Of a DNA stretch of 64,000 nt, positions 6,096 through 64,000 are shown one piece after another (within the stretch, counting starts at the first letter, position 1; every line of letters starts with the position of its first letter). The translations under genes were made by a program, and so were the position numbers. The stretch is from a virus. Lineage: Duplodnaviria > Caudoviricetes. The notes beneath the pieces are model-generated. The model was not told where the DNA came from. It made no database searches and was given only the letters and a program-made list of their open reading frames with translations. The DNA is taken from positions 82,653 to 146,652 of IMG/VR virus record IMGVR_UViG_3300029314_000064; one strand, 5' to 3'.

Positions 6096-6854
6096 TTATA
6101 CATCTCCGTCTATGTCGAATTTAGACAAAGTATTTAAACGAATACCTTCTTCATCTAGAATAACCTTACAAATATTTTCTGCTTCAGTTGCATCTTTTTT
6201 ATTCAACTCTGTTTCCATCCATACACATTGCTTATATTTTTTCTCAATATGATTCCAATCTACCCAGGCATAATGAACAACATAGGTCTTAGAATTATAT
6301 ATGTTCCCAAAATTATCTATTGTTCCAAAAGCGAAATGGTGGTTGTTGTATGCGGAACCAAAACTTTTCAAATCAGGATGTAAACTGAAAAACTTTCCTG
6401 ACAGCTGATCATGAAATTTATCTGTTCTATATTTGGTTCTACTTCTCCACAAATTCATATATCCAAACCTAACAGTATGTCTGATGGCTGGATCATTAAA
6501 CTTTATGAATTTCTTAATATAGAGAATAGCTAGGTTTTCTAAAATCTCATCACCATCAAGATACAAAACCCATTTTGAATCTGTGTATTTACGAGCATAG
6601 TCTAGAAGACTATTAAGGATATTGTTTTCGTTAAATGGTGTCTCTTGTTGAAAGACCTTAACATTCTTATATCTTTTATAAACTTCATCACTGCCATCAT
6701 CAGACATACCATCAGCTATGATAATATGCTCGCAAAAATGAAGGTGATTTAAAACCTGCTCAAGCATAGTATGTTCAGGCTTTTGATCTCCAGGGCCATA
6801 CACATACTTATTTTCATTCTTGAGCATAAGTATAACAACGAGACCTTTAACCAT
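6096..6854 (-). CDS. glycosyltransferase family 2 (GT-A fold)
   Basis: MLKNE, IIIADGMSDDGS, WVLYLDGDE (DxD) and C-terminal VVHY motifs. Confidence 0.85.
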   Translation of the reverse strand: MVKGLVVILMLKNENKYVYGPGDQKPEHTMLEQVLNHLHFCEHIIIADGMSDDGSDEVYKRYKNVKVFQQETPFNENNILNSLLDYARKYTDSKWVLYLDGDEILENLAILYIKKFIKFNDPAIRHTVRFGYMNLWRSRTKYRTDKFHDQLSGKFFSLHPDLKSFGSAYNNHHFAFGTIDNFGNIYNSKTYVVHYAWVDWNHIEKKYKQCVWMETELNKKDATEAENICKVILDEEGIRLNTLSKFDIDGDV

Positions 6855-7476
6855 ACTTCACGATTCCAAATCCGCATGCGGCGTGCCAGTTTGTTTCAAT
6901 TTTTTCATTCTCAATTTTATTCCAAAATAATTCCATTTCTTCATTCAATTCTATATCGTCCCACAAAACAATTCCCTTAAATTTTTGCTTCATTAATTCA
7001 TTATGAATTCTCAGCTCATGATGTCCGTCATGACCTATATCTACAAAAATGGTATCAAAATCATAAAATTTAAAATCAGTACACTCATCAGCATTTCTTA
7101 AATGTCTTACTAATATATTTTTTTCCATAAGAACTTCTTTAGAAATATGGCCCGTATTTACATCAGCAGTCAACACTCTTCTTCCTGGATAAAGAAAACA
7201 AACTGTTCCTGCGCCTGTTTGTGTTCCTAATTCTAAAATATTTTTATCACTTACAAGACTGGAATAAGCGAGGAGATACATATAATATCTCTCGGCTAGC
7301 ATCCAGTTTCGCAAATATCCATGTTTCTCAAAAGTCTCGCCAATTTTATATTTCTCAGATAATGCCTGCAATACTTGCTTGTAATGAGATTCATTCTTAT
7401 GAACTCCAGCATTACAAGTTTCCACAATATTTTTTAATTCAAGGGTCATGAATTTCCTCTGATACTGGCTGCCCAC
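6847..7476 (-). CDS. class I SAM-dependent methyltransferase (Methyltransf_24-like)
   Basis: ILELGTQTG motif I; FDTIFVDIGH; GIVLWDD; overlaps the GT2 start. Confidence 0.8.
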   Translation of the reverse strand: MGSQYQRKFMTLELKNIVETCNAGVHKNESHYKQVLQALSEKYKIGETFEKHGYLRNWMLAERYYMYLLAYSSLVSDKNILELGTQTGAGTVCFLYPGRRVLTADVNTGHISKEVLMEKNILVRHLRNADECTDFKFYDFDTIFVDIGHDGHHELRIHNELMKQKFKGIVLWDDIELNEEMELFWNKIENEKIETNWHAACGFGIVKYG

Positions 7477-13532: not shown

Positions 13533-14027
13533 CTAAAAAGAACACGAGATAGGCTTAACATTCCAGAACGGAGGAAGATTAGATTTCATATACTTTTCAT
13601 ATTGTTTCTGAATACTAACATAAGGAACACTATGTTGGTTACGATCAGCAATCCTGGCAAGGTCTTGTTCATAAACAACAATTTCAACAATCGTATAAGG
13701 AACTTTCTTCATATTCGCATACGCAATATACGGAGCAATTTCCCATGCTTCAAGATTGGTATTATCAATAATAATCGGAAGAGGATAATCAGTTTTAGGA
13801 ATCATATCAAAACAATACTTGGCATAATATTGTTCAGTATAACGAGATTTTCCACTTCCAGAAATACCCCGCATAATAATCACTTCAGAAATACCGTAAT
13901 TATAATTATGATCAAACCTATTAACAAAAGTCTTGAAGCAATGATTGTGAGCCTCAGACAAAAGCCTAGGATCAAAATTGTATTTTCCGTCTTTCATAAA
14001 ATAATCATCAGCAGAAATAATAGGCAT
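13533..14027 (-). CDS. N4BP2/AAA_33-like P-loop (poly)nucleotide kinase with permuted motif order
   Basis: ISADDYF...EAHNHC, MRGISGSGKS, IIDNTN...WE..PY and RNQHSVP motifs; start at MPIIS after GGAG because the longer ORF overlaps a tRNA-like gene. Confidence 0.8.
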   Translation of the reverse strand: MPIISADDYFMKDGKYNFDPRLLSEAHNHCFKTFVNRFDHNYNYGISEVIIMRGISGSGKSRYTEQYYAKYCFDMIPKTDYPLPIIIDNTNLEAWEIAPYIAYANMKKVPYTIVEIVVYEQDLARIADRNQHSVPYVSIQKQYEKYMKSNLPPFWNVKPISCSF

Positions 14028-14047
14028 TTTAATCTCCCAATAAGTAG

Positions 14048-14122
14048 TGGATTGCTGACAGGGCTTGAACCTGTATACGTATGAGAACATCATACTGTCT
14101 TACCTGTTAAACGACAGCAATC
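14048..14122 (-). tRNA. atypical tRNA-like gene (GTT at anticodon position, His-like G-1:C73)
   Basis: G-ATTGCTG...CAGCAAT-CCA; anticodon arm GTATG-ATGTTCT-CATAC; T arm ACAGG-TTCAAGC-CCTGT. Confidence 0.7.
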
Positions 14123-16110: not shown

Positions 16111-16848
16111 TTATATCAAGTCTAGCAGGCTCACTATGTTTTTCTTGTATAATTCAAAAATATTACTAAATTCAGATGATGCATTTTCTGAAGCACCATC
16201 TGAAATCATTTTAATCATGGTTAATTGCTTGCCATACATCTTACAGACTTTTCCTAAACTGTATCCTTCCATATCAACAATTTGTGACCCAAATGTAGTT
16301 ATAATTCTATTAGAAACAAAATCAGAATCAACAAAAGAATCGCCTGTCGCTAATTTCACACACTGTAATCCATAGTATAAATCTCTATCTCTAATTATGT
16401 GACTGTGATGTATTTCTATATCCTGATACAAATCATTAAATTGCTCAGACCGTAATGCTTCAGGGATATAAACATCATGTTGGCATACATGAGTTACGAG
16501 AACAAATTGTCCAATTTTAAATAAATCTTTTCTTAATGATCCACACAATCCTATATTTATAATGTCTGTTGGATTAAGAACCTCTATGGCGTATGCAGAG
16601 ACCATAGCGGCATTTGTCTTTCCTATTCCAGTCACAACCAAAGCGTGTTGTTTACCAGGAGACATATATATCTTAATCATATCAGACATTCTAAAAAAAT
16701 AATTCCCAAACATTTTACTTTCAAGATTAAGAAATTTCTTAACAGTATTCTTATCCAATAACAACATCCTATAATGATCTATAATAGGCTGCGCTTCTTC
16801 TTCCATAGCACAACAGTAAAGCCTACCAACACGCACGCTACGATGCAT
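16111..16848 (-). CDS. mtnN: 5'-methylthioadenosine/S-adenosylhomocysteine nucleosidase
   Basis: AMEEEA, TGIGKTNAA, IINIGLCGS, QHD, TGDSFV, VDMEG, MISDGA motifs. Confidence 0.88.
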   Translation of the reverse strand: MHRSVRVGRLYCCAMEEEAQPIIDHYRMLLLDKNTVKKFLNLESKMFGNYFFRMSDMIKIYMSPGKQHALVVTGIGKTNAAMVSAYAIEVLNPTDIINIGLCGSLRKDLFKIGQFVLVTHVCQHDVYIPEALRSEQFNDLYQDIEIHHSHIIRDRDLYYGLQCVKLATGDSFVDSDFVSNRIITTFGSQIVDMEGYSLGKVCKMYGKQLTMIKMISDGASENASSEFSNIFELYKKNIVSLLDLI

Positions 16849-17569
16849 TTCAGGACCCCTAGATTGCCACAGGATTAAAAAATTTTGCCGCAACACCCCA
16901 AACCATGCAAGGTGCGCGGCAAATTAATCTAATGGCAAATCACAGCTTATCCTACCTGTTTAGTCTTTTCGTCTTTTTTGGCCTGTATTAATTCGCCAAT
17001 AGATGCAGTCAAGATAGAGTTTTCCATCTTTTTAACTTTTAACTCTGCAATATCAGAGGCATTGGTCCTCTTGATATTCATAGATTTTTCTTTCATTTCC
17101 TTTTTTCTTTTCTCTATCTCTTCAAGAAATTCCTTGGTCTTATTCTTTTTCTTAGCCTTGGCAGGCTTTTCTGCTTCAATACTTTCACGCTGCTCTTGCA
17201 ATTTCTTTTCTTGTTCTTGAATCTTTTTCTCCTCAATGTTCCTTTCTATCTTTAAAACGCGGGTCATAATTTTCTCTCCCCATTAGGGTTTTAGAATTGG
17301 TTGTTTTTCACATCACAAACTCCTGACCATTTCTTCAGCTATTTCTGTAACACGAGAGGGAAAGCCATCTGCCTGTGCAATCCAAGTCAATAGTCTTCTC
17401 CCTTCCCAGTCATCTCTTAATTGAGAAAATAAAAAACCTTCCCATTTATCTTTAATATTCTTATTGATTCTAACATCCAAATTATCTTTGGTCACAGTAA
17501 ACAATGGACCACTGCTAACCAATTGTTTAGATCTTTTCTTGGATTTTTTAAGACTTGTTTTTTGAAGTT

Positions 17570-18190
17570 TCATTTCCTCCCCTCAACCAACCATGTATGC
17601 AGTTGTTCTGATAAATTATAGATAAAATCTTCTAATTGCATTTCAATTATTCTATTCTTATAGTACAAATTCATTTCATGAAAGTTCATATAATCTTTAT
17701 ACAAGTATACCTCAATAAAAGCACCGACAACATCCAGTTGTTTAACCCCAACCAATACAGCTTCATGAATTTCATTATCTTTAACTTTTAAAAAATCTCT
17801 AATGGTAGTACGGATGTTTGCTTTAAAAGAATCTAATCCAGGAATTTTAACAGGAGCAGGTATATCATTAATCACAATTTCTTCAACATCATGTGTCAAA
17901 ACACTGGTCAGAAGTTTATGTCTGAAATCACTGGACTGATAAGTTTCGGCGTATTCTCGTGTCTTTTCGAAATTGAAACGATTATACATAAAATCACAAT
18001 ACTTTTCAACCATCATAGCACACAAAGCACTGTGTTCTAATACATTTAATCTAATGCCATCAGGAATATTAAATGCTGAGAACCTCCTGATGTTCCTCAG
18101 TGAAGCAATAGAAATTATATCTATTCCTGCGGGATACCATTCTCCGTTAGGCAGTAGTGTCTTGATTTCTGTTTCTTTAGTCTGTTTCAT
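17570..18190 (-). CDS. HD-domain phosphohydrolase, YfbR/5'-deoxynucleotidase-like
   Basis: RRF...NVLEHS...LTHDVEE..INDIPAPVK. Confidence 0.75.
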   Translation of the reverse strand: MKQTKETEIKTLLPNGEWYPAGIDIISIASLRNIRRFSAFNIPDGIRLNVLEHSALCAMMVEKYCDFMYNRFNFEKTREYAETYQSSDFRHKLLTSVLTHDVEEIVINDIPAPVKIPGLDSFKANIRTTIRDFLKVKDNEIHEAVLVGVKQLDVVGAFIEVYLYKDYMNFHEMNLYYKNRIIEMQLEDFIYNLSEQLHTWLVEGRK

Positions 18191-22649: not shown

Positions 22650-23609
22650 TTAAATATTCTCAAAACTTAATTGCTTCTTTTTCTTTTCGTTTCTAGGAAC
22701 AAACTTATTCCTTGGTCTTCCATATTTATGATATGCCTTATAATATTTGCTGAACTCACAGAAAGTATTCTCTATGTCTGCAAGATGAATACCTTTTTCC
22801 TTACCACCAAGAGAGTCTATATACTGATATTCAAGACCATACTTATTCAGAAAATATGACTGATGCTTTCTTGTAAATCGCATTGCGTCTTCAAAAGAAA
22901 TTTCAGTATCGTATGGGTAAACATGTCTGATTCCACGCTTACATCCAGGACCAGCAACCACAAAATCATCATGACTAAATTTAACAACTCCAGTATTAAT
23001 CATGTCAAGAATGTATTGGTATCCAAGAAATGGACCGAAACCCTGGACTCCAGTTGCAGCCTTATACACTTCTTCAAGTGATTTAGCTTTTATTATTCTG
23101 TCATAAATAACATCTATTTCTTTATAAATCAAATCAACAAGATGAAGAATATTATACAGTTTATCCTTGTAACCACCAAACGCAACACCTGTCACGATGT
23201 GAGCATCTGTCCAAACAGATTGGCCACTCATTCTTATCTTTTCTAGCTCTTCGATAATACCACTCATACTAAAGTGATCTAATTGTAGATACTTTAATAT
23301 CTTCTCCATTGTTTCTATCTTGTTGAATAATCTATGAATGAATGTAGCAAATACTATATCCTTCTTATTTTCAAAAGCACCTATATGATCTTGATACCAA
23401 ATTGTAGTTCTATCTAATGACCTATGGACATTTGTAAATTTATATTCTTTTAAAATAGGATCATTAGTCCACGGAGGATCTTTTTTGGTTTTTCTTCTAA
23501 TATATATATCTTGTCTTTCAGTAATAAATCTCCAATATAATTCCATAGTCTGTTCATGATAATGGAATGATTTATTATTTGTCTTAATTAGAACTAAATT
23601 AGAATCCAT
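22650..23609 (-). CDS. alpha-glutamyl/putrescinyl thymine pyrophosphorylase clade 1-like DNA base hypermodification protein
   Basis: YWRFITERQDIY..R...PPWTNDPILKEYKFTNVHRSLDR; GFGPFLGYQ...D; AGPGCKRG; DIENTFCEFSKY. Confidence 0.85.
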   Translation of the reverse strand: MDSNLVLIKTNNKSFHYHEQTMELYWRFITERQDIYIRRKTKKDPPWTNDPILKEYKFTNVHRSLDRTTIWYQDHIGAFENKKDIVFATFIHRLFNKIETMEKILKYLQLDHFSMSGIIEELEKIRMSGQSVWTDAHIVTGVAFGGYKDKLYNILHLVDLIYKEIDVIYDRIIKAKSLEEVYKAATGVQGFGPFLGYQYILDMINTGVVKFSHDDFVVAGPGCKRGIRHVYPYDTEISFEDAMRFTRKHQSYFLNKYGLEYQYIDSLGGKEKGIHLADIENTFCEFSKYYKAYHKYGRPRNKFVPRNEKKKKQLSFENI

Positions 23610-41429: not shown

Positions 41430-41749
41430 TACGGTCTCATCTTTCTACAAGCAACATCTGCAATTTGCCTAACTCTTTCTCTCGTAACATTCATAAATTT
41501 ACCAATCTCCTCAAGAGTCAGGGCGCCATACTTGTCCACTATATCAAGTGAACAATTATCTTTATTCATTGCAGTAACATCTTCGACATCTTGTATGATT
41601 TTTAACTTACCCTTCTCATTCACGTTCAGGAACGTGTTGTGCCTACAGCTAACAAAAGGGCAGGGGCGAGGCACATCTTTACAATCAGCCCTGATTCTGG
41701 GCCTCTCAATACTATTAATCGTCAAAGAGGGTTTCGATGATTTGGGCAA
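41429..41749 (-). CDS. stand-alone sigma-70 region-4-like HTH protein with Cys-rich N-terminus
   Basis: RADC...RPCPFVSCRH...CSLD then LTLEEIGKFMNVTRERVRQI. Confidence 0.8.
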   Translation of the reverse strand: MPKSSKPSLTINSIERPRIRADCKDVPRPCPFVSCRHNTFLNVNEKGKLKIIQDVEDVTAMNKDNCSLDIVDKYGALTLEEIGKFMNVTRERVRQIADVACRKMRP

Positions 41750-42788
41750 ATATTTTTTCCTTTTCAGGATGATTTCTCTTTTTATGAATATTCTTAGATT
41801 TAATTAAAGCATTTTGTATGTCTTTATTTTTCACAACATATGTTCCTGAGTGCCTACATGATTCATAGGCAAGACAATTCACAAAATCAATAAGATTATG
41901 TTTCTTCTTATATTCGTTATTCATAATGTAATAAACCAATGCAGCCATCACTGTATCACCTGCTCCAGTCGAATCAATAACATCACCATTAATATAACTT
42001 TCAGGTAAAGAACTTCCAGTAAGAGTCATATAGTGATCTTCAAAAACAACATGGTTTAAATAAGCTGAAGAATTTTTCTTTAAATAACTTAATTCACAGC
42101 CATCTTCTGATTTGGTTCTCAAAATTACAGGGAACAAACAATCAATATTAGACTGATAATATTTAAATTCACTATCATTAGGCTTAAAAAAATGAACTCC
42201 ATCATAAATATCTAAATGTTTAGACTTACTATCTAAAAACATAATAGATCTTCTAGATAGATATATTATATGTCTAATTACTTTTTTATTCATACATCCT
42301 TTATCATAATCAGAAAAAACTATAGCATCATAATCATATACAGAATTCCAAAACCTAGATGAATAAATATTTTCGTCTAATGATTCTATCTTTGATCTAT
42401 TTAAACTAGACATTTCTTTATCAAATCTTAAACCAACATGATGATTCTTATTATCAAGAAATCTGTGTTTCTGAATAAAATCAATCTCAGGAACACCTAA
42501 AGAATTTTCACTAGAGGGGTAAATCAAATATATGCCACACTGCTCCATAAATTCCAAAATAGTTTTAGTGAAATGATCATTGCCTGGATTAAATGAAAGT
42601 AAGAATGAAACATCAAAACCACAACCTAATAGATTCATTGCTGTATTCGCTGCTCCACCAGGATTAATAGCAGTTGCTATACAATCAAAAACTGGAATAG
42701 GAGCTTCTGGTGAAGTACGCTTAGTGGTGCCGCTATGGAACACATCTGCGATTGGATCACCATAAACAAGTATCTTCTTTTTATTCAT
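41715..42788 (-). CDS. HldE/RfaE domain I-like sugar-phosphate kinase (PfkB family, heptose-7-phosphate kinase-like)
   Basis: ILVYGD..AD....G...RTSPEAPIPV, GGAANTA.NL, FSDYDKG, DSTGAGDT. Confidence 0.85.
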   Translation of the reverse strand: MNKKKILVYGDPIADVFHSGTTKRTSPEAPIPVFDCIATAINPGGAANTAMNLLGCGFDVSFLLSFNPGNDHFTKTILEFMEQCGIYLIYPSSENSLGVPEIDFIQKHRFLDNKNHHVGLRFDKEMSSLNRSKIESLDENIYSSRFWNSVYDYDAIVFSDYDKGCMNKKVIRHIIYLSRRSIMFLDSKSKHLDIYDGVHFFKPNDSEFKYYQSNIDCLFPVILRTKSEDGCELSYLKKNSSAYLNHVVFEDHYMTLTGSSLPESYINGDVIDSTGAGDTVMAALVYYIMNNEYKKKHNLIDFVNCLAYESCRHSGTYVVKNKDIQNALIKSKNIHKKRNHPEKEKIFAQIIETLFDD

Positions 42789-45520: not shown

Positions 45521-46012
45521 CTATTTGTAATCTGGAGCAGGAACGATGCGGTAAGAGTCTTCTTCAAAATGCTGAGTAGAAACCTCAACAAATTGACATT
45601 TTTCTGAATTTTTCTTACCTACGAAATCATTAGGAATAGCCTCGAACCTATGAGGCGTGTAGGGAGGTATCCTAAATGATGTTCCTGGCCAAAGTACAAT
45701 CAATTGGTCTGGTTTGTTTTGTTTTTCTTTTACTTCTTCAATACCGGCAGTTGATGGTGTTGAAATAGAATTCCAAAGTTCTAATTTTAGTATTCCAGAC
45801 ATTATGTGAAAAGTTTCATCTTTGATTCTATGATAATGAATGCTGCATCTTCTCTTTGGAATAACATCTATTATTTTCATACAATATTTATCATTGTTTG
45901 CAATCCAAATCTCATTACCCCAATTTTTTTCCTTATAAACATATGGAATAGAAGAGATACCACCCTGGCTTGCTTGATACAAAGCCAATTTAGATAAATC
46001 ATGTTTTATCAT
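45521..46012 (-). CDS. cupin, sugar isomerase-like
   Basis: KNWGNEIW, CSIHYHRIKDETF, IPPYTPHRF, EVST...DSYR. Confidence 0.75.
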   Translation of the reverse strand: MIKHDLSKLALYQASQGGISSIPYVYKEKNWGNEIWIANNDKYCMKIIDVIPKRRCSIHYHRIKDETFHIMSGILKLELWNSISTPSTAGIEEVKEKQNKPDQLIVLWPGTSFRIPPYTPHRFEAIPNDFVGKKNSEKCQFVEVSTQHFEEDSYRIVPAPDYK

Positions 46013-46470
46013 TTATCAATCATCCCTTGATCAGATACATGGATATCTAGGTTTCCGTGATCTATATAAATAATACCCCTAACATGTTTTGAACCTTGAA
46101 TGTGATCGTATTTTTTGTCTAATACAGTATCTAATCCCTTAACAATAAAATCAATATCGTGAATCTTTATAGCCCTAATTACATCTTCTTCAGTTCCATT
46201 AAATACATCACACTCGACTTCAATCACTTGTGTAATGTATTTTAATCTAGTAAAAGCATCATAAAAAGGACGATTTTCTCCTTTCAATTTTCTCATAGAT
46301 TCATCATCATTAAGTAAGACAATAACATTTCCTAATTTTTTAGCTGCATGTATTAATGACATATGTCCAACATGCATTCTTGGTTCTTCTCCTGATTTCA
46401 TATCAAAACATCCAACCAATAATAAATTAGATTTTCCTGAGTTAGCGTTTTGGCAAGACAATTTCAGCAC
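46009..46470 (-). CDS. HldE/RfaE domain II-like nucleotidyltransferase (heptose-1-phosphate adenylyltransferase-like)
   Basis: GCFD...HVGH, LNDDESMRKLKGENRP, IVKG.D. Confidence 0.82.
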   Translation of the reverse strand: MLKLSCQNANSGKSNLLLVGCFDMKSGEEPRMHVGHMSLIHAAKKLGNVIVLLNDDESMRKLKGENRPFYDAFTRLKYITQVIEVECDVFNGTEEDVIRAIKIHDIDFIVKGLDTVLDKKYDHIQGSKHVRGIIYIDHGNLDIHVSDQGMIDK

Positions 46471-47077
46471 CTTGGCCTTGATATTTTCCTTTTCTATCTA
46501 AATAAGAAACCTTACATTCTTCGCCCTTAAAAAATACAATCTGCGCAACACCTTCTTCTGCGTACAGCTTCGCAGGCATAGGCGTCGCATTACTAATTTC
46601 TATAGTAAGGTAACCTTCCCATCCTGCTTCGAGCGGAGTGACGTTAACAATCAATCCAGCTCTAGCAAGTGTACTCTTACCCCATGCAACTCCAGTAATA
46701 TCACGAGGTAAATTAAATTTCTCCATAGACCTTGTAAGAACATAAGCATTAGGAGGGATAATAACATGTCCCTTTCCTTTGACATTAATAAAATTATCTT
46801 CAGTAATATTTTTAGGATCATTGATAACAGCATTTACATTGGAATAAATCTTAAATTCGTCTGCTGCCCTAATGTCATAACCAAAACTAGATTGTCCATA
46901 TGATGCGATCTTTTCTCCATTTTTTTCTCTAATAGATTCACAAAAATAAGGAGAAATTAATTTACTGTCTTTAGGAAGTGAATCATCAAGAAACATCATC
47001 ATCTGATCATTCATAATCCCAAAATATGTTTGATATTTTTCTATCTTAAGAAAATCTTTAGAAACCAAATTAGACAT
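46442..47077 (-). CDS. dcd: dCTP deaminase
   Basis: SYGQSSFGYDIR, GKSTLARAG...NVTPLEAGWEG..T.EISN, GKYQGQ. Confidence 0.93.
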   Translation of the reverse strand: MSNLVSKDFLKIEKYQTYFGIMNDQMMMFLDDSLPKDSKLISPYFCESIREKNGEKIASYGQSSFGYDIRAADEFKIYSNVNAVINDPKNITEDNFINVKGKGHVIIPPNAYVLTRSMEKFNLPRDITGVAWGKSTLARAGLIVNVTPLEAGWEGYLTIEISNATPMPAKLYAEEGVAQIVFFKGEECKVSYLDRKGKYQGQGAEIVLPKR

Positions 47078-58979: not shown

Positions 58980-59639
58980 TCATCCCTTTTGTGCTGTATA
59001 CAACCACCATGTTGCACCAATACTTTTCAGGATATCCTCAGTATATTGGTGTTTCTCAAAACTATGGAAACCACAGTCAGCAAAAACATTCTTCATTGTT
59101 TCAGGATCATGAGAATACATACCACCTGTCACATAATCACGACTGCTTTCTTTATCTAAAAATATAGTATCATGATTTGATTCTTTCCACTGAGTACAAT
59201 GAATAAGTATTCTTGATTTATCCTTAGTGACACGATACGCTTCCTTAATATACTTAATGACATGATTAATATGAATATGCTGGAATACAAGTGAAGAGAA
59301 CACTACGTCGAATCTTTTATCTTCGAACGGTAATGTTCCATCACCGCTTACAGGAATAATACTGCCAAGTTGTTTCGAATCTACGAATCTATCTATAAGA
59401 CTTTGGCATGCAATTTCAGATATATCAACAGCATTATACTCTCTGATGTAATTTTTCATCCAAGCAAAAACATCTCCGTTACCACAGCCTATATCAAGAA
59501 CAGAATCTGTCTTCATTAATTTATTCACAGCATGCGGATTAAAAAGAGCATTGAATAATATATTTCCAGAATACACATCATAACCTTTAGAATGTAAATC
59601 TTCCCATAGCGTCTTATGAGTTTCAATCTTAGTGCTCAT
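58980..59639 (-). CDS. class I SAM-dependent methyltransferase
   Basis: VLDIGCGNG, AVDIS, LPFED..FDVVFS..VFQH. Confidence 0.9.
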   Translation of the reverse strand: MSTKIETHKTLWEDLHSKGYDVYSGNILFNALFNPHAVNKLMKTDSVLDIGCGNGDVFAWMKNYIREYNAVDISEIACQSLIDRFVDSKQLGSIIPVSGDGTLPFEDKRFDVVFSSLVFQHIHINHVIKYIKEAYRVTKDKSRILIHCTQWKESNHDTIFLDKESSRDYVTGGMYSHDPETMKNVFADCGFHSFEKHQYTEDILKSIGATWWLYTAQKG

Positions 59640-60942
59640 TAATATATCTCCTTGTGTTTTCTAGAAATTTTTCATTCTTAAATTTTGAATTTAATCTAAT
59701 TTCATGTAGGACTTTATCAATTAATTCCTGGCGATTGTTTACTAACTGAAAATCATTTGATCTATTTATAAATTCCAAACCAGCAATAGCCCAATCATAA
59801 AATCCTGATGACTCTTTTATCATTTTAATTAAACAATCCATAGATTTCCAATAATCTTTAACTTTATAAAAATCATAAGCAGAAAGATAATATGTGCATG
59901 CTCTTGAATAATTACTCTTAGAATACCTTATATTCACTTCTCCATTATTAACTGCTCTTGTTAATTCATTATTACTCATGACTTCATCTGCGATAAGCAA
60001 ATAACTTCCTAAATTTTTTCCACTTTCTTCTACTTCTCCAATATCTTCATGCTTTAAGACAGTTGGCTCAACATAATCATAAACATCATAATCATATTTT
60101 CTTTCAGATATTCTTTTTGTCACCTCAGATGTATCATAAATATGCAAACTATCAGACATATGAATATAGTGTCCAATATCAACATTTAATGCAGCCGCCA
60201 TAAATTCCTGAAGATGGCCAAACTGAACAAAATTCACCCCGTACAATCCTAAATGCAAATCATTTGATCTATTAGAAACTGTCATATTTAATTTATTATT
60301 TCTTATCTTAAAATAGATGGTAGTATTACATGGACGATCTTTTGTTTCATTCAAATAATAATCAAATAATGGATTCCATAAACTCACAACAGCTTGACGA
60401 GAATCTTTATCTTTCTTAAGAGACTCATAACAATGAAGAAGCTGATCCACTTGTGGTAAACTACCGACATTTACTGAAGTGTATTTTGTTAATGAAACAA
60501 ATTTCTTATCTTTTGTTTTAAATCTATTAAAGAATCTAATTCTTCTACCATAAGGTGCATTAAAATCATTACTATCATCATCAAGTTGATACTCTTTCAA
60601 TTTTGAATTAAAACTACATACCCATTCGTGATTTCCGTGACCACCAAGTATCCACATATTTTCTGCCATATTAAAGAACGGATTCGCTCTTCTTCCTGGC
60701 ATAGTGCATAACTTTTTGTGTGGAGAAATTATCTCATGGACAGCAGGTTGAATCTCATAAGTCTTTAAACCCCTTGGAGAAACAACCATGCCTTTATTCA
60801 TTATATGATCCATTGCTGAAACATATAACTTATTTGGCCTATCTCCAGAAAATACTGCTAAATCTTTAAACTGAGAATTAAAAGGAAAATCTTTTTCATC
60901 TTTGTTATTTTCACTATCACTCTTAATAAAGTCTTCCATCAT
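59629..60942 (-). CDS. thymidylate synthase-fold enzyme, probable dUMP hydroxymethylase
   Basis: NPFF..AE..W, YGRR, DQL...L..D..SRQAV, DRPCN, RSNDLHLGLYGVN (Asn indicates dUMP specificity), SLHIY. Confidence 0.85.
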   Translation of the reverse strand: MMEDFIKSDSENNKDEKDFPFNSQFKDLAVFSGDRPNKLYVSAMDHIMNKGMVVSPRGLKTYEIQPAVHEIISPHKKLCTMPGRRANPFFNMAENMWILGGHGNHEWVCSFNSKLKEYQLDDDSNDFNAPYGRRIRFFNRFKTKDKKFVSLTKYTSVNVGSLPQVDQLLHCYESLKKDKDSRQAVVSLWNPLFDYYLNETKDRPCNTTIYFKIRNNKLNMTVSNRSNDLHLGLYGVNFVQFGHLQEFMAAALNVDIGHYIHMSDSLHIYDTSEVTKRISERKYDYDVYDYVEPTVLKHEDIGEVEESGKNLGSYLLIADEVMSNNELTRAVNNGEVNIRYSKSNYSRACTYYLSAYDFYKVKDYWKSMDCLIKMIKESSGFYDWAIAGLEFINRSNDFQLVNNRQELIDKVLHEIRLNSKFKNEKFLENTRRYINEH

Positions 60943-62435
60943 ACCTCCTGAAATCCTGCAAATAATTCTTTAGGTATATCTTTCCATAAAGAATTACTAA
61001 GGATAATTTCTTTCTTAGGAACTTCCTCAATTACATCTTCTGTTACAATATTATATACCGGATTGTTTTGACCAAAATCACTTAATTTATTGCGACTTGA
61101 ATCTTCATTAAGATAAAACTCATAACCGCGTTTCTTATTTCTAACAACCTCATAATCGACCATATTCTTCTTACATATGGCAATAAATGAATCAACAAAT
61201 CTTTGCCATGTAAAATAAGTCTTACAAAAATCCATTTGTGTATTTATGATTTTAATTCGTTCTGAAAAATTCAAAGACAAAAATGACTTAATCTTTTTCT
61301 GAGCATCTTCTTTATCCTTTAAAACAAACCATGAATCAAAAACTAAATCCTTTGCAGAATGAATAAGATTATCTATAAAGCACATAGACATACAGGACGA
61401 TGTCTCCATGGTCCTTGCAGTCCACCATCCCATCTTTGATGCATCTCCAGGTTGAATCTGAACAACACAACCAGAATCATTAATATGGTCTAACAAATCC
61501 TTACGTGTTTCAACCCAACCCAAGAAATTAATACCTTCAAACCCACTCTTTGCCTCATCAGTCCATTTACCAGACACATAAGTAGGTACACCAATATCCT
61601 CATAAAATTTTCTAAATGACTTCCTTCTTCTTCTATCACCACCTGAATAAAATAATGGATACTTAATTTTTTCCTTAAACTGATAACCTTCACATAATTC
61701 ATACGAGTACGCTGGAGGAATATACTCGAACGAAAGGTGCTTTTGAAATTCTTTATATCCGCAGCGGTCAGAGTTGAATACATCTACCATATATTCGAAA
61801 TTTTCAGGAAGACAACGTGTTACAACAACAGATTTTTTATCCTGAAACATTTCATCAAAAGTACCCCAAGCACTGTCCCTTACCCATTTTTCTCCACGAT
61901 TTTCTTTAACAGGATTCGTATACCCATTCCTCTTATGGCCCCACGGATATTTTCTTCCAGCCATCTGTCTAAAGTAGAAAGGCAGTGAAGGGTCGTTGTG
62001 AAGGTAAATTACCGGCCCCTTGTGTGCATCAACCACCCGCGCAAAGCGACGAATCAGGCCCGTTTCAGACGCATCTATGCCATCATTTTGGGTTGTTTTG
62101 GCAAACGGGTCTGAAAACATAGTGTTGCCTACGCCCGCCTCAACAATCAAAACATCAACCTTAAAATCTCCTACAGGTAATTCTGCGGGAGCATAACCAA
62201 TGTTTTTTAGAAAAGGTAGTGTTTTAGGAATATTTTCTTCATCACCAAGAAGCCATCGTTCTTCTCTTGGATTATTTTTTGTTCCACGAACAAGTGGTGT
62301 GAAAATAATAACTTCATGACCACGACTAATTAATTCCTTCACCAAACCATATCTGTCATCAACTCCCGAATTAGAGGTTGAACTTAATACTTCTAAATCT
62401 ATAGGTATACAGAATTTTACTAATCCGAACCTCAT
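60939..62435 (-). CDS. GT-B glycosyltransferase resembling T4 DNA beta-glucosyltransferase
   Basis: YSGGDRRRR...FLGWV...WTARTMET.....FID parallels T4 BGT YGG..R...FTGKI...ITLRVWET.....LID. Confidence 0.7.
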   Translation of the reverse strand: MRFGLVKFCIPIDLEVLSSTSNSGVDDRYGLVKELISRGHEVIIFTPLVRGTKNNPREERWLLGDEENIPKTLPFLKNIGYAPAELPVGDFKVDVLIVEAGVGNTMFSDPFAKTTQNDGIDASETGLIRRFARVVDAHKGPVIYLHNDPSLPFYFRQMAGRKYPWGHKRNGYTNPVKENRGEKWVRDSAWGTFDEMFQDKKSVVVTRCLPENFEYMVDVFNSDRCGYKEFQKHLSFEYIPPAYSYELCEGYQFKEKIKYPLFYSGGDRRRRKSFRKFYEDIGVPTYVSGKWTDEAKSGFEGINFLGWVETRKDLLDHINDSGCVVQIQPGDASKMGWWTARTMETSSCMSMCFIDNLIHSAKDLVFDSWFVLKDKEDAQKKIKSFLSLNFSERIKIINTQMDFCKTYFTWQRFVDSFIAICKKNMVDYEVVRNKKRGYEFYLNEDSSRNKLSDFGQNNPVYNIVTEDVIEEVPKKEIILSNSLWKDIPKELFAGFQEV

Positions 62436-62444
62436 AGGTTCCCC

Positions 62445-63725
62445 TTATAGGAAGTTTGAATTCATTGGATCATTTTCTATTGACTGATCCATGAGTTGAT
62501 TATAAAACCTAAACGTACATCTCGGACATTCGTCTAAATTAATTTCTGATATCAAATTATAATGTTCTCTACTACCCCATAATTCATTAATGAAATCTTT
62601 CCTTGTTATTTTTCCATCATGCCATCTTCCTAACTGCAACTTTGGATCACCTCTTCTATCACAGCATAAATACAGTGAACCATCTGCAGAAAAAATAAGA
62701 CCTAATGGCGTAGCAGAACAGTGGCTGAAATCAAGCATTGGTTGCCACGCCGGGCCAACCTTATGAATCATACCTATGACTTTAAATGTACTGTCTTCAT
62801 ATAACTCTCTTGCTTTGATTATATTATTCTGAGATTCTTCTATCATTTCTGGAGTGTAAACTTCTTCTGGATTATCAACATATGTCGGTTTAAATTGTAT
62901 TTGATCACATCCTATTTTCTTTGCAATCCTGGCAGCCTCAAGCATAGAAGTATAACTCCATGCGTGAATATTAAATTTATATCCAACATTCAATGGGGTC
63001 TCAACGTATCTCTTTACTTCTTTTCTTAAAGCACACAACATTTCTATATTATCTACTATTGTTTTAAAAGCATCTCTATTTTTATTCTTGTGTTTTGGCT
63101 CATGCTGTTTCTTATGGTCTTCTGTATTACCAGCATCAACACTAAAGCCGGTCCATGAAGCATGCTCAATAAGAAGTTTTGCAATATCTTTTGTAAGTAA
63201 TTCTCCATTTGTAATTAATGCAATTTCAGGTAATTGCTCAAAAGATACTTCATTTCTTATATGTGAATTATAATATCTCAATTCAGAAACTTTCTGTATA
63301 AAGTCTGGAGTATGCTTGTTGAGTAGCGGTTCTCCACCTCCAGCAAGAACAATAGCATTCACCCACGTATGCCCGGATGTAGTCAGCTTTGACCACTTAG
63401 GAATAAACTCTGCTAGTGAAATCAATATATCTTTCTTTAAGACAGTTGAGTCATTTTCTTGTATTGTAGAAGAGATACACCATGGGCATCCGTGGTTGCA
63501 TGCATCAGAAGGATCTATTGTGACATACACAGGAGTCGGTATGAATTCTTTTGGTATATTACTATCAGGATAAGCACTCTTATTGTACGCCATCCATTTT
63601 TTAATTGCGATCATTCTTTTAATATGAAAAGCAGATTTCCAACTGTTGAATGGATTGAATGGACTAGAGTATTGCATAAATGGTTTCTTCTCAGAATCGT
63701 TAGGATATTGCTTTAATTTACTCAT
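62445..63725 (-). CDS. radical SAM enzyme with C-terminal SPASM/Twitch-like Cys cluster
   Basis: CNHGCPWC, GGGEPL, ITNG, C...CC...CPRC. Confidence 0.92.
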   Translation of the reverse strand: MSKLKQYPNDSEKKPFMQYSSPFNPFNSWKSAFHIKRMIAIKKWMAYNKSAYPDSNIPKEFIPTPVYVTIDPSDACNHGCPWCISSTIQENDSTVLKKDILISLAEFIPKWSKLTTSGHTWVNAIVLAGGGEPLLNKHTPDFIQKVSELRYYNSHIRNEVSFEQLPEIALITNGELLTKDIAKLLIEHASWTGFSVDAGNTEDHKKQHEPKHKNKNRDAFKTIVDNIEMLCALRKEVKRYVETPLNVGYKFNIHAWSYTSMLEAARIAKKIGCDQIQFKPTYVDNPEEVYTPEMIEESQNNIIKARELYEDSTFKVIGMIHKVGPAWQPMLDFSHCSATPLGLIFSADGSLYLCCDRRGDPKLQLGRWHDGKITRKDFINELWGSREHYNLISEINLDECPRCTFRFYNQLMDQSIENDPMNSNFL

Positions 63726-63779
63726 GACTCCTCCTTAGATAAATATATCTCATAACAACAATGTCTTTCAAGAAGAAAA

Positions 63780-63827
63780 AATAAAAGGCGCCATTGTACC
63801 GATGCAGGATACAATGGCGCCTTTATT
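63780..63827 (-). terminator. intrinsic terminator
   Basis: aaaggcgccattgta-ccgatgcagga-tacaatggcgccttt followed by a T tract on the minus strand. Confidence 0.8.
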
Positions 63828-63843
63828 CAGTTTATATTTTAAA

Positions 63844-64000
63844 TCAGCCTTCTTCATCTTCAATCTGCTCAACCTTTGTTGCCTTCTTAACAGGCTTCAC
63901 AATAGGAGCAGACTTCTTTTCTGACTTCTTCTCAGACTTTTCTTCCTTGCTTACCTTCTTAACCTTCTTGGGTTCCTCAGAAGCCTCTTCAACCTTCTTC
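63844..64000 (-). CDS. C-terminal fragment of a Lys/Glu-rich protein, truncated by the window edge
   Basis: Translates ...KKVEEASEEPKKVKKVSKEEKSEKKSEKKSAPIVKPVKKATKVEQIEDEEG-stop with AAG codons. Confidence 0.75.
   Translation of the reverse strand, partial: KKVEEASEEPKKVKKVSKEEKSEKKSEKKSAPIVKPVKKATKVEQIEDEEG

Follow-up and report, generated by a model that had tools for sequence, protein, structure and literature searches.

A candidate thymidine hypermodification operon in an uncultured phage combines a T4 BGT-like glycosyltransferase with a predicted dUMP hydroxymethylase, a radical SAM enzyme and a methyltransferase

The 64,000-nucleotide stretch of phage DNA analysed here (positions 82,653 to 146,652 of IMG/VR record IMGVR_UViG_3300029314_000064, hereafter the window) contains, directly ahead of the replicative polymerase gene dnaE, four co-oriented genes that may form a new pathway of DNA hypermodification. 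The genes encode a radical S-adenosylmethionine (SAM) enzyme (P0003), a GT-B glycosyltransferase (GT; P0001), a protein of the thymidylate synthase (TS) fold (P0002) and a class I SAM-dependent methyltransferase (MT; P0004). We propose that the phage makes DNA containing 5-hydroxymethyldeoxyuridine (5hmdU), that the 5-hydroxymethyluracil (5hmU) base is O-glycosylated by P0001, a remote homologue of T4 β-glucosyltransferase (BGT), and that P0003 and P0004 tailor the sugar. We put the probability of this complete scheme, in which the product chemistry, acceptor, donor and substrates are all predicted, at about 0.55.

RESULTS

P0001 is a remote homologue of T4 BGT

P0001 gave no match in Pfam (E ≤ 0.01, PF09198 included), PHROG or NCBIfam, and phmmer searches of the PDB sequences returned nothing for either P0001 or P0003. 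Nothing was found by megablast with the operon or by tblastn with P0001 against 50,697 phage records, and a pattern scan of IMG/VR yielded no confirmed relative. A search of 5.8 billion proteins gave just 15 relatives; when 1.84 billion representatives were searched exhaustively with a profile, 194 were obtained.

The AlphaFold (AF2) model of P0001 had a mean confidence score (pLDDT) of 78, with a low-confidence tail at residues 428–498. When Foldseek was run with this model, the top six matches were all T4 BGT. Alignment of the model with T4 BGT by VIA-align covered 334 of 351 residues with Z 26.2 and a root-mean-square deviation of 3.9, compared with a Z of about 22 for generic GT4 enzymes and 20 for the T4 α-glucosyltransferase. 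In hhalign, a 15-sequence profile of the P0001 family matched T4 BGT weakly (E 0.043, probability 1.2%); the 110-sequence family profile matched it with a probability of 99.4% (E 1.3e-21, 321 columns). PF09198 (T4-Gluco-transf) was matched directly by two of the 110 relatives.

The alignment placed the P0001 segment IYLHNDPSLPF on YYLFTDIRLPF of BGT, so that D148 corresponds to the catalytic Asp100. R268 and R270 correspond to Arg191 and Arg195 and R341 to Arg269, the arginine ligands of the UDP phosphates in BGT, and E344 corresponds to Glu272. Among the 110 relatives, D148 is conserved in 87, R270 in 108, R341 in 104 and E344 in 80. Taken together, the model, the profiles and the aligned residues identify P0001 as a remote homologue of T4 BGT with an apparently intact catalytic apparatus, which bears out the BGT-like assignment of this 498-residue protein in the initial annotation. 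The family probably stands beside GT63 as a sister family. Homology and gene linkage predict that P0001 acts on 5hmU in DNA.

P0002 has the active site of a dUMP hydroxymethylase

Among the 50,697 phage records, the best matches of P0002 were the hydroxymethylases of SPO1, SP8 and SP10 acting on deoxyuridine monophosphate (dUMP), with 37–44% identity; in PHROG it matched phrog_5131 (E 4e-85). P0002 contains the motif NRSNDLHLGLYGVN and was aligned with SPO1 gp29, SP10 gp188, T4 gp42 and exon 1 of T4 td. Two positions of Escherichia coli ThyA are diagnostic: a non-hydrophobic or acidic residue in place of L143 admits water to the methylene intermediate, and Asn177 denotes dUMP rather than deoxycytidine monophosphate (dCMP) as the substrate (PMC13326640). 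The alignment showed that the catalytic Cys (C146) is present in all five sequences and lies in P0002 within KDRPCN, identical to SPO1 gp29. At the water-excluding position 143, P0002 has Asp, as does every aligned hydroxymethylase (SPO1 gp29, SP10 gp188 and T4 gp42), whereas the true synthase T4 td has Leu. At position 177, which governs substrate choice, P0002 has Asn, within GLYGVN, whereas the dCMP enzyme T4 gp42 has Asp.

The residue corresponding to D169 is also Asp in P0002. Asn at this position is the mark of 5-hydroxy-dCMP synthases, and enzymes of the RB69 gp48 type combine it with Asp at 177 (PMC13326640). Because P0002 retains Asp169, and has Asn at 177, an identity as a 5-hydroxy-pyrimidine (5-hydroxy-dCMP) synthase was dropped.

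P0002 further has a C-terminal extension in common with SPO1 gp29. The complete record gave no other ThyA homologue, and a search of it for ThyX was negative. The TS-like genes of four related loci (L002, L010, L011 and L019; all four that were checked) encode the same Asp143/Cys/Asp169/Asn177 combination. These data make P0002 very probably a dUMP hydroxymethylase, and the earlier view of the TS-fold protein as a dUMP-acting enzyme, taken from the Asn at its specificity position, agrees both with the alignment and with the SPO1 and SP10 matches.

The GT recurs with the same partners in divergent uncultured phages

Inspection of loci carrying P0001 relatives showed the order radical SAM–GT–MT–TS–dnaE in L002, radical SAM–DUF1653–GT–MT–TS in L011 and GT–MT–TS–HNH–dnaE in L010. 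In L009, where the GT is 35% identical to P0001, the order is MT–radical SAM–x–GT (x, another gene), and in L018 (GT about 31% identical) a radical SAM gene precedes the GT. The P0110 locus has MT–x–x–GT with a uracil-DNA glycosylase (UDG) gene upstream. In L019, a radical SAM gene, a B12-binding radical SAM gene and the GT are followed 4 kb downstream by a TS homologue and then by two GT2 genes. The radical SAM genes adjacent to the GT in L018 and L019 encode P0003 orthologues (25–30% identity; E 4e-36 and 3e-62), and an MT with the Pfam signature of P0004 lies near the GT in L002, L009, L010, L011 and the P0110 locus.

The associations of the GT with a radical SAM enzyme, an MT and a dUMP-type TS thus persist across these loci down to about 25–30% identity. 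Their recurrence in divergent contigs implies that the radical SAM–GT pair is an old mobile module rather than a chance arrangement, and that a dUMP-type hydroxymethylase and an enzyme of methylation usually belong to it. The B12-binding radical SAM gene of L019 (6616–8004; class B methylase type) lies between the P0003-type gene and the GT. It occupies the place of the class I MT of the present lineage, which suggests that methylation is a conserved step carried out by different enzymes.

P0003 has relatives in sugar pathways, and P0004 is a generic class I methyltransferase

P0003 carries a CX3CX2C motif (C76/C80/C83), and this and the C-terminal cysteines C336, C354, C400 and C403 are invariant in 56 homologues; the latter mark a predicted twitch/SPASM-type auxiliary cluster. 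The model of P0003 (pLDDT 91) matched the folds of SkfB (Z 25.1), DesII (Z 24.6, aligned over the greatest length, 344 residues) and BlsE (Z 23.4), which are nearly tied, and of anSME, the four falling in a range of Z 21–25. SkfB is a peptide maturase, and the substrates of DesII and BlsE are a nucleotide sugar and a sugar nucleoside, respectively. An ESM Atlas look-up returned just generic radical SAM/SPASM clusters. When tblastn was run with P0003 against the phage records, five matches were obtained, none from M6-like phages, and no similarity to the isomerase M6 gp53 was seen at this level.

Homologues with about 30% identity to P0003 were found in three kinds of surroundings: a deltaproteobacterial polysaccharide cluster with GT2, GT4 and GT9 genes; a cluster with a UDP-glucose dehydrogenase, an HldE fusion and an SIS isomerase; and a phage cluster in which a B12 radical SAM enzyme is encoded together with methyltransferases and GT2 enzymes. 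These contexts point to sugars, and P0003 may act on a nucleotide-activated sugar, as DesII does; the fold match to DesII is tied with that to SkfB. For P0004, the NCBIfam matches were weak and below cut-off, among them MftM and a Pse-associated methylase, and its Pfam and NCBIfam matches included no DNA-methyltransferase signature. P0003 and P0004 may both be sugar-tailoring enzymes, although this is the least secure step of the proposed mechanism. Where the initial annotation had left the two enzymes to tailor either the sugar or the base, both proved to be conserved partners of the GT, and the relatives of P0003 in sugar pathways favour the sugar.

The four genes and dnaE appear to form a single transcription unit

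In the open reading frame (ORF) listing, the radical SAM, GT, TS-like, MT and dnaE genes follow one another on the minus strand in this order of transcription, separated by a 9-bp gap (radical SAM/GT), a 4-bp overlap (GT/TS), an 11-bp overlap (TS/MT) and a 3-bp gap (MT/dnaE), exactly as originally described. A terminator-like hairpin and a promoter candidate lie ahead of the radical SAM gene (Table 1), with a ribosome-binding site (AAGGAGGAG) between the promoter candidate and the ATG at 63725. The four genes and dnaE therefore look like a single transcription unit. The genes upstream of the operon are those found at the start of the record, namely primase, DnaB, a DnaC-like protein and an SF2 helicase.

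The dnaE product has 1820 residues here, compared with about 1155 in the relatives L002 and L010, and its Intein_splicing and LAGLIDADG matches point to one or two inteins with a homing endonuclease. The record, an uncultured phage genome of 146,652 bp rated 100% complete in IMG/VR, of which the window is the final 64 kb, starts (L004, 3–800) and ends (window, 63844–64000) within a single Lys/Glu-rich ORF. Similar low-complexity sequence is found at both ends, without a terminal repeat. The genome is probably circularly permuted, the assembly having broken in this ORF.

Table 1. Features of the window discussed in the text (positions in the window; all on the minus strand)
Feature	Position	Strand	Evidence and predicted role
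Radical SAM enzyme P0003, 426 aa	62445..63725	-	Pfam PF04055 (Radical_SAM) E 1e-14; predicted sugar-tailoring
GT-B glycosyltransferase P0001, 498 aa	60939..62435	-	Remote T4 BGT homologue; predicted 5hmU-DNA glycosyltransferase
TS-fold enzyme P0002, 437 aa	59629..60942	-	PF00303 (Thymidylat_synt) E 2e-22; SPO1 gp29/SP10 gp188 type; predicted dUMP hydroxymethylase making 5hmdUMP
Class I SAM-dependent methyltransferase P0004, 219 aa	58980..59639	-	PF08241/PF13649/PF13489 (Methyltransf_11/25/23), E 1e-16 and weaker; predicted sugar methylation
DnaE-type replicative polymerase, 1820 aa	53514..58976	-	Pfam PHP, DNA_pol3_alpha, finger, HHH_6, OB, Intein_splicing, LAGLIDADG_3
Intrinsic-terminator-like hairpin	63784..63824	-	17-bp stem, 8 GC pairs, T run; closes upstream replication-gene unit
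Sigma-70-like promoter candidate	63742..63771	-	TTGAAA-18-TATATT; pattern match only
dCTP deaminase	46442..47077	-	PF22769; TIGR02274 135 bits vs cut-off 92.8; likely dUTP/dUMP supplier
HldE domain II-like sugar-1-phosphate nucleotidyltransferase	46009..46470	-	PF01467; rfaE_dom_II E 8e-14, below cut-off; candidate for NDP-heptose-type donor synthesis
Cupin, sugar-isomerase type	45521..46012	-	PF07385 E 4e-5 (weak)
HldE domain I-like (heptose-7-phosphate kinase-like) PfkB kinase	41715..42788	-	PF00294; rfaE_dom_I E 5.7e-40, below cut-off
Standalone 5-hmdU DNA kinase helical-domain protein (aGPT-Pplase clade 1-like)	22650..23609	-	PF18723 E 1e-65
HD-domain protein, 5'-deoxynucleotidase-like	17570..18190	-	PF12917 E 3e-6, phrog_318 E 3e-7; weak candidate for dTMP depletion
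MTA/SAH nucleosidase-like protein	16111..16896	-	PF01048; NF004079 E 4.5e-23, below cut-off

Genes elsewhere in the genome

The dCTP deaminase gene sits in a downstream deoxynucleotide operon, together with the HldE-like genes and the cupin gene. In SPO1, gene 30.2 (L005, 7460–7864), two genes past gp29, is annotated as a phosphoheptose isomerase, although SPO1 DNA is described as plain 5hmU; this co-location recalls the HldE-like genes of the present phage. The nucleosidase-like protein would clear S-adenosylhomocysteine (SAH) and 5'-deoxyadenosine, by-products that inhibit methyltransferases and radical SAM enzymes, which would fit a phage with two radical SAM enzymes and several methyltransferases. 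The genome search found no NT5C. It gave no match for TET/JBP (PF12851) either, and as the control genomes were also silent, this negative carries little weight.

The PF18723 protein is 35% identical to the C-terminal half of SP10 gp186, and SP10 gp186 matches the genome through that half only. The protein may be a 5hmU-DNA-recognising accessory factor or belong to a second modification branch. No match to the P-loop kinase domain of the 5hmU DNA kinase (5-HMUDK, PF18748) was found at E ≤ 0.1 in the complete 146.6-kb record. A Walker A scan of all ORFs gave one unassigned P-loop ORF, which resembles polynucleotide kinase (13533–14093); it was rejected as a 5hmU DNA kinase, having nothing but the Walker A motif in common with the SP10 kinase.

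A second set of GT genes lies at the genome start, beginning directly after the tail genes. A terminator with a 16-bp stem (L004, 14298–14334, minus strand) divides it. The first GT9 gene stays on the side of the tail operon. The other side holds the second GT9 gene, the four GT2 genes, the methyltransferase gene and the radical SAM/SPASM gene, and runs into the helicase, DnaB and primase genes with no obvious terminator between. In the window, a GT2 gene (6096–6854) and an overlapping Methyltransf_24 gene (6847–7476), both on the minus strand, are similar in length and arrangement to the GT2/MT pair at L004 9209–9967/9960–10595, and may be a duplicated glycan module distant from the main cluster. 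Between the capsid and tail genes of a 40-kb podovirus from spring water (MW202801.1; L012, 7920–12583) lie genes for a related radical SAM enzyme, a PhyH dioxygenase, a NodB-like deacetylase, a DREV methyltransferase and two GTs, which make up another uncharacterised phage glycan cluster.

DISCUSSION

A predicted route to glycosylated 5hmU

The gene set is consistent with a thymine-replacement system that would act both before and after replication, on the plan of T4 gene 42 and beta-gt but with uracil as the base. Deoxyuridine nucleotides would be supplied by the dCTP deaminase, and dUMP would be converted to 5-hydroxymethyl-dUMP by the SPO1 gp29-like P0002, a step for which the sequence argues strongly. 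After phosphorylation, the nucleotide would be incorporated by DnaE in place of thymine. On the strength of its homology and gene linkage, P0001 is then expected to flip 5hmU out of double-stranded DNA and to move the sugar of a nucleoside diphosphate (NDP) sugar to the hydroxymethyl oxygen, giving an O-glycoside like that of base J. Finally, and with the least certainty, the conserved linkage and the glycan contexts of the radical SAM family suggest that P0003 and P0004 alter the sugar, either while it is still part of the NDP-sugar or once it has been transferred; possible reactions include a radical dehydration, deamination, oxidation or epimerisation with a subsequent methylation. The likely purpose would be to shield the phage DNA from host nucleases.

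Several points weigh against this scheme. T4 BGT is inefficient on 5hmU except where this base is mispaired, so activity of P0001 on 5hmU:A pairs would need adaptation. The genome holds at least five GT2 genes, two GT9 genes, further methyltransferases and a second radical SAM/SPASM gene next to the tail genes, and the GT, radical SAM enzyme and MT of the operon could therefore belong to a non-DNA glycan pathway. No radical SAM gene lies beside the GT in L010, and no gene of the present phage could be identified with confidence as that of a dNMP kinase or a dTTP-excluding enzyme. Standalone PF18723 proteins number more than 1000, some of them encoded on bacterial chromosomes of 3.9–4.5 Mb; since such proteins are common in bacteria, the gene lends the scheme little support. 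TS homologues are also capable of unexpected chemistry, as the 5-hydroxy-dCMP synthases illustrate (PMC13326640).

Alternative readings

Given the other GT genes, which the initial annotation left out of account, the phage might make 5hmdU DNA and yet use the BGT-like GT, the radical SAM enzyme and the MT in a large glycan system acting on virion proteins or another non-DNA acceptor, adjacency to the hydroxymethylase then reflecting early-gene organisation. The GT cluster directly after the tail genes (four GT2, two GT9, a methyltransferase and a radical SAM/SPASM gene), the P0003 homologues in cellular polysaccharide clusters and the position of the related genes between capsid and tail genes in the spring-water podovirus all agree with such a role, as do the acceptor promiscuity of GT-B enzymes and the finding that most phage GT contigs are without a base-modification gene (Pyle et al., bioRxiv 10.1101/2023.12.21.572611). 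However, among solved structures P0001 is closest to a DNA enzyme, T4 BGT, whose catalytic motifs it has, and a dUMP-type hydroxymethylase gene accompanies it in all relatives whose contigs extend far enough. In addition, the operon appears to be cotranscribed with dnaE, and a strong terminator parts most of the GT2/GT9 cluster from the tail operon while the cluster continues into helicase and primase genes. We regard the non-DNA role as the main alternative, though an unlikely one.

The same cluster bears on a more elaborate form of the DNA scheme, in which P0001 would only prime the modification, and 5hmU across the whole genome would bear a heptose-containing oligosaccharide lengthened by the GT2 and GT9 enzymes. 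The NDP-heptose would be made by the phage itself, tailoring would fall to several methyltransferases and to the two radical SAM enzymes, which are oxygen-sensitive, and about 20 genes would take part in making a DNA glycan unlike any yet described, in what would be the phage of an anaerobe. We regard this as a doubtful extension; the running of the GT2/GT9 cluster into replication genes and the GT2 genes that follow the TS homologue in L019 would fit it.

Alternatively, the radical SAM enzyme might work on the DNA base or on the base–sugar junction, for example by forming a C–C link or rearranging the 5-substituent, and the final base would then be other than a simple O-glycoside. There is precedent in M6 gp53, a radical SAM enzyme acting on a hypermodified thymine in DNA, glycinyl-thymine (PMC8989533), and SP-15, YerA41 and Carin-5 have carbon-linked pentyl linkers of unknown origin beneath their sugars (PMC12686479); the very tight and ancient pairing of the radical SAM and GT genes would also be in keeping with it. 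Against this, the tblastn search with P0003 finds no M6-type enzyme, and two of the three near-tied structural neighbours (DesII and BlsE), like the genomic relatives, indicate sugar or sugar-nucleotide substrates, so that a base-acting enzyme seems distinctly improbable.

Still less probable is that 5hmdU serves mainly as the precursor of a non-sugar modification, an amine or amino acid being transferred through the aGPT-Pplase1-like/HMUDK-helical protein, with the GT irrelevant to DNA. The strong PF18723 match with its identity to SP10 gp186 fits this reading, and one PF18723 homologue is labelled aGPT-Pplase clade 1 by JGI. It is opposed by the missing 5-HMUDK kinase domain in the complete record, by the slight resemblance of the lone unassigned P-loop ORF to the SP10 kinase (Walker A only), by the 36 kb between the PF18723 gene and the hydroxymethylase gene, and by the wide distribution of the family in bacteria.

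An ordinary thymidylate synthase in a phage with canonical DNA, its neighbours being unrelated auxiliary metabolism, is what the bare 'thymidylate synthase' label reported by Pfam and NCBIfam, and given to gp29 homologues in many database records, would imply, but the Asp that replaces Leu at position 143, where water is kept out, a KDRPCN motif identical to that of SPO1 gp29, the gp29-type C-terminal domain and the conserved place of P0002 beside the BGT homologue in relatives leave this reading hardly credible.

Relation to known systems

The proposed 5hmU glycosylation system resembles T4 gene 42 and beta-gt (CAZy GT63; PDB 1qkj/1j39). In both phages a TS-fold hydroxymethylase gene adjoins a GT-B homologue near a polymerase gene (gene 43 in T4), a hydroxymethyl-pyrimidine would here, as in T4, be made before replication and receive its sugar afterwards, and the catalytic Asp and the UDP-binding Arg and Glu residues are kept. 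Unlike T4 gp42, P0002 has Asn rather than Asp at 177 and is predicted to use dUMP rather than dCMP; P0001 has 498 residues compared with 351 in BGT, is about 15% identical to it and lacks a direct PF09198 match; and T4 has no counterpart of the radical SAM enzyme or the MT. The Bacillus 5hmU phages share with P0002 the active-site motifs, the C-terminal extension and 37–44% identity (SPO1 gp29, SP8 and SP10 gp188). The DNA of SPO1 and SP8 is, however, described as plain 5hmU, whereas a BGT-like GT is present here, and SP10 proceeds to glutamyl-thymine through a 5hmU DNA kinase (PMC8989533), of which the present phage has no kinase domain.

It has been reported that T4 BGT-like GT-B enzymes, with a cytidylyltransferase and in some cases a kinase, put heptose on 5-hydroxymethylcytosine (5hmC) in phage DNA, and that about 28% of metavirome GT-B contigs carry a ThyS gene (Pyle et al., bioRxiv 10.1101/2023.12.21.572611; Cell Rep 2024). 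The general class of a GT-B beside ThyS is therefore already known. The clusters characterised in that work differ in using 5hmC made by a methyltransferase and TET, the ThyS-linked set having been counted but not characterised, and none of the reconstituted clusters has the present radical SAM enzyme or a dUMP-type hydroxymethylase. The initial annotation did not recognise the combination of genes; this holds in that no characterised pathway with this enzyme set was found, but has to be narrowed by the catalogued GT-B/ThyS pairs.

M6, ViI, PaMx11, phiW-14 and SP10 (Lee et al. 2018, 2021; PMC5889632, PMC8989533) would share with the present phage the platform base 5hmdU and, in M6, a radical SAM enzyme in the pathway (gp53); a PF18723 helical-domain protein is present here too. 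In those phages, however, a P-loop DNA kinase activates 5hmU and AADT enzymes attach amino acids, whereas here a GT stands in the place of the kinase. Base J of kinetoplastids (JBP1/2 and JGT) represents the predicted product class, a sugar O-linked to 5hmU in DNA; it is made by oxidation of thymine within DNA (TET/JBP), unlike the nucleotide-level TS homologue and GT-B predicted here, and JGT has been likened to phage GT-A enzymes (Pyle et al., bioRxiv 10.1101/2023.12.21.572611). SP-15, YerA41 and Carin-5 (PMC5977210, PMC12686479) carry sugars on thymidine and a block of sugar-nucleotide and GT genes near a polymerase gene, but they have a (di)hydroxypentyl carbon linker with phosphate and PolA–UDG fusion polymerases, and no BGT-like/radical SAM/MT trio has been described in them. 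Glycosylation of 5hmU by clusters of a T-dioxygenase and a GT has been predicted in the literature but not shown, and among open-access papers and preprints no report of O-glycosylated 5hmU in phage or virion DNA was found.

Implications

If the proposal is correct, this would be the first virus found reported with a sugar O-linked to 5hmU, a chemistry otherwise known from trypanosome base J and reached here by a different route, and P0003 and P0004 would be the first radical SAM enzyme and methyltransferase to tailor a DNA-borne or DNA-destined sugar. The recurrence of the module in divergent uncultured phages would define a family of DNA modification, one that standard annotation misses because the GT is without a Pfam, PHROG or NCBIfam match. 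Restriction enzymes, and perhaps CRISPR nucleases too, are likely to be ineffective against such DNA, and its sequencing may be biased. For mapping 5hmU, a DNA glycosyltransferase specific for this base would, in addition, be a useful reagent.

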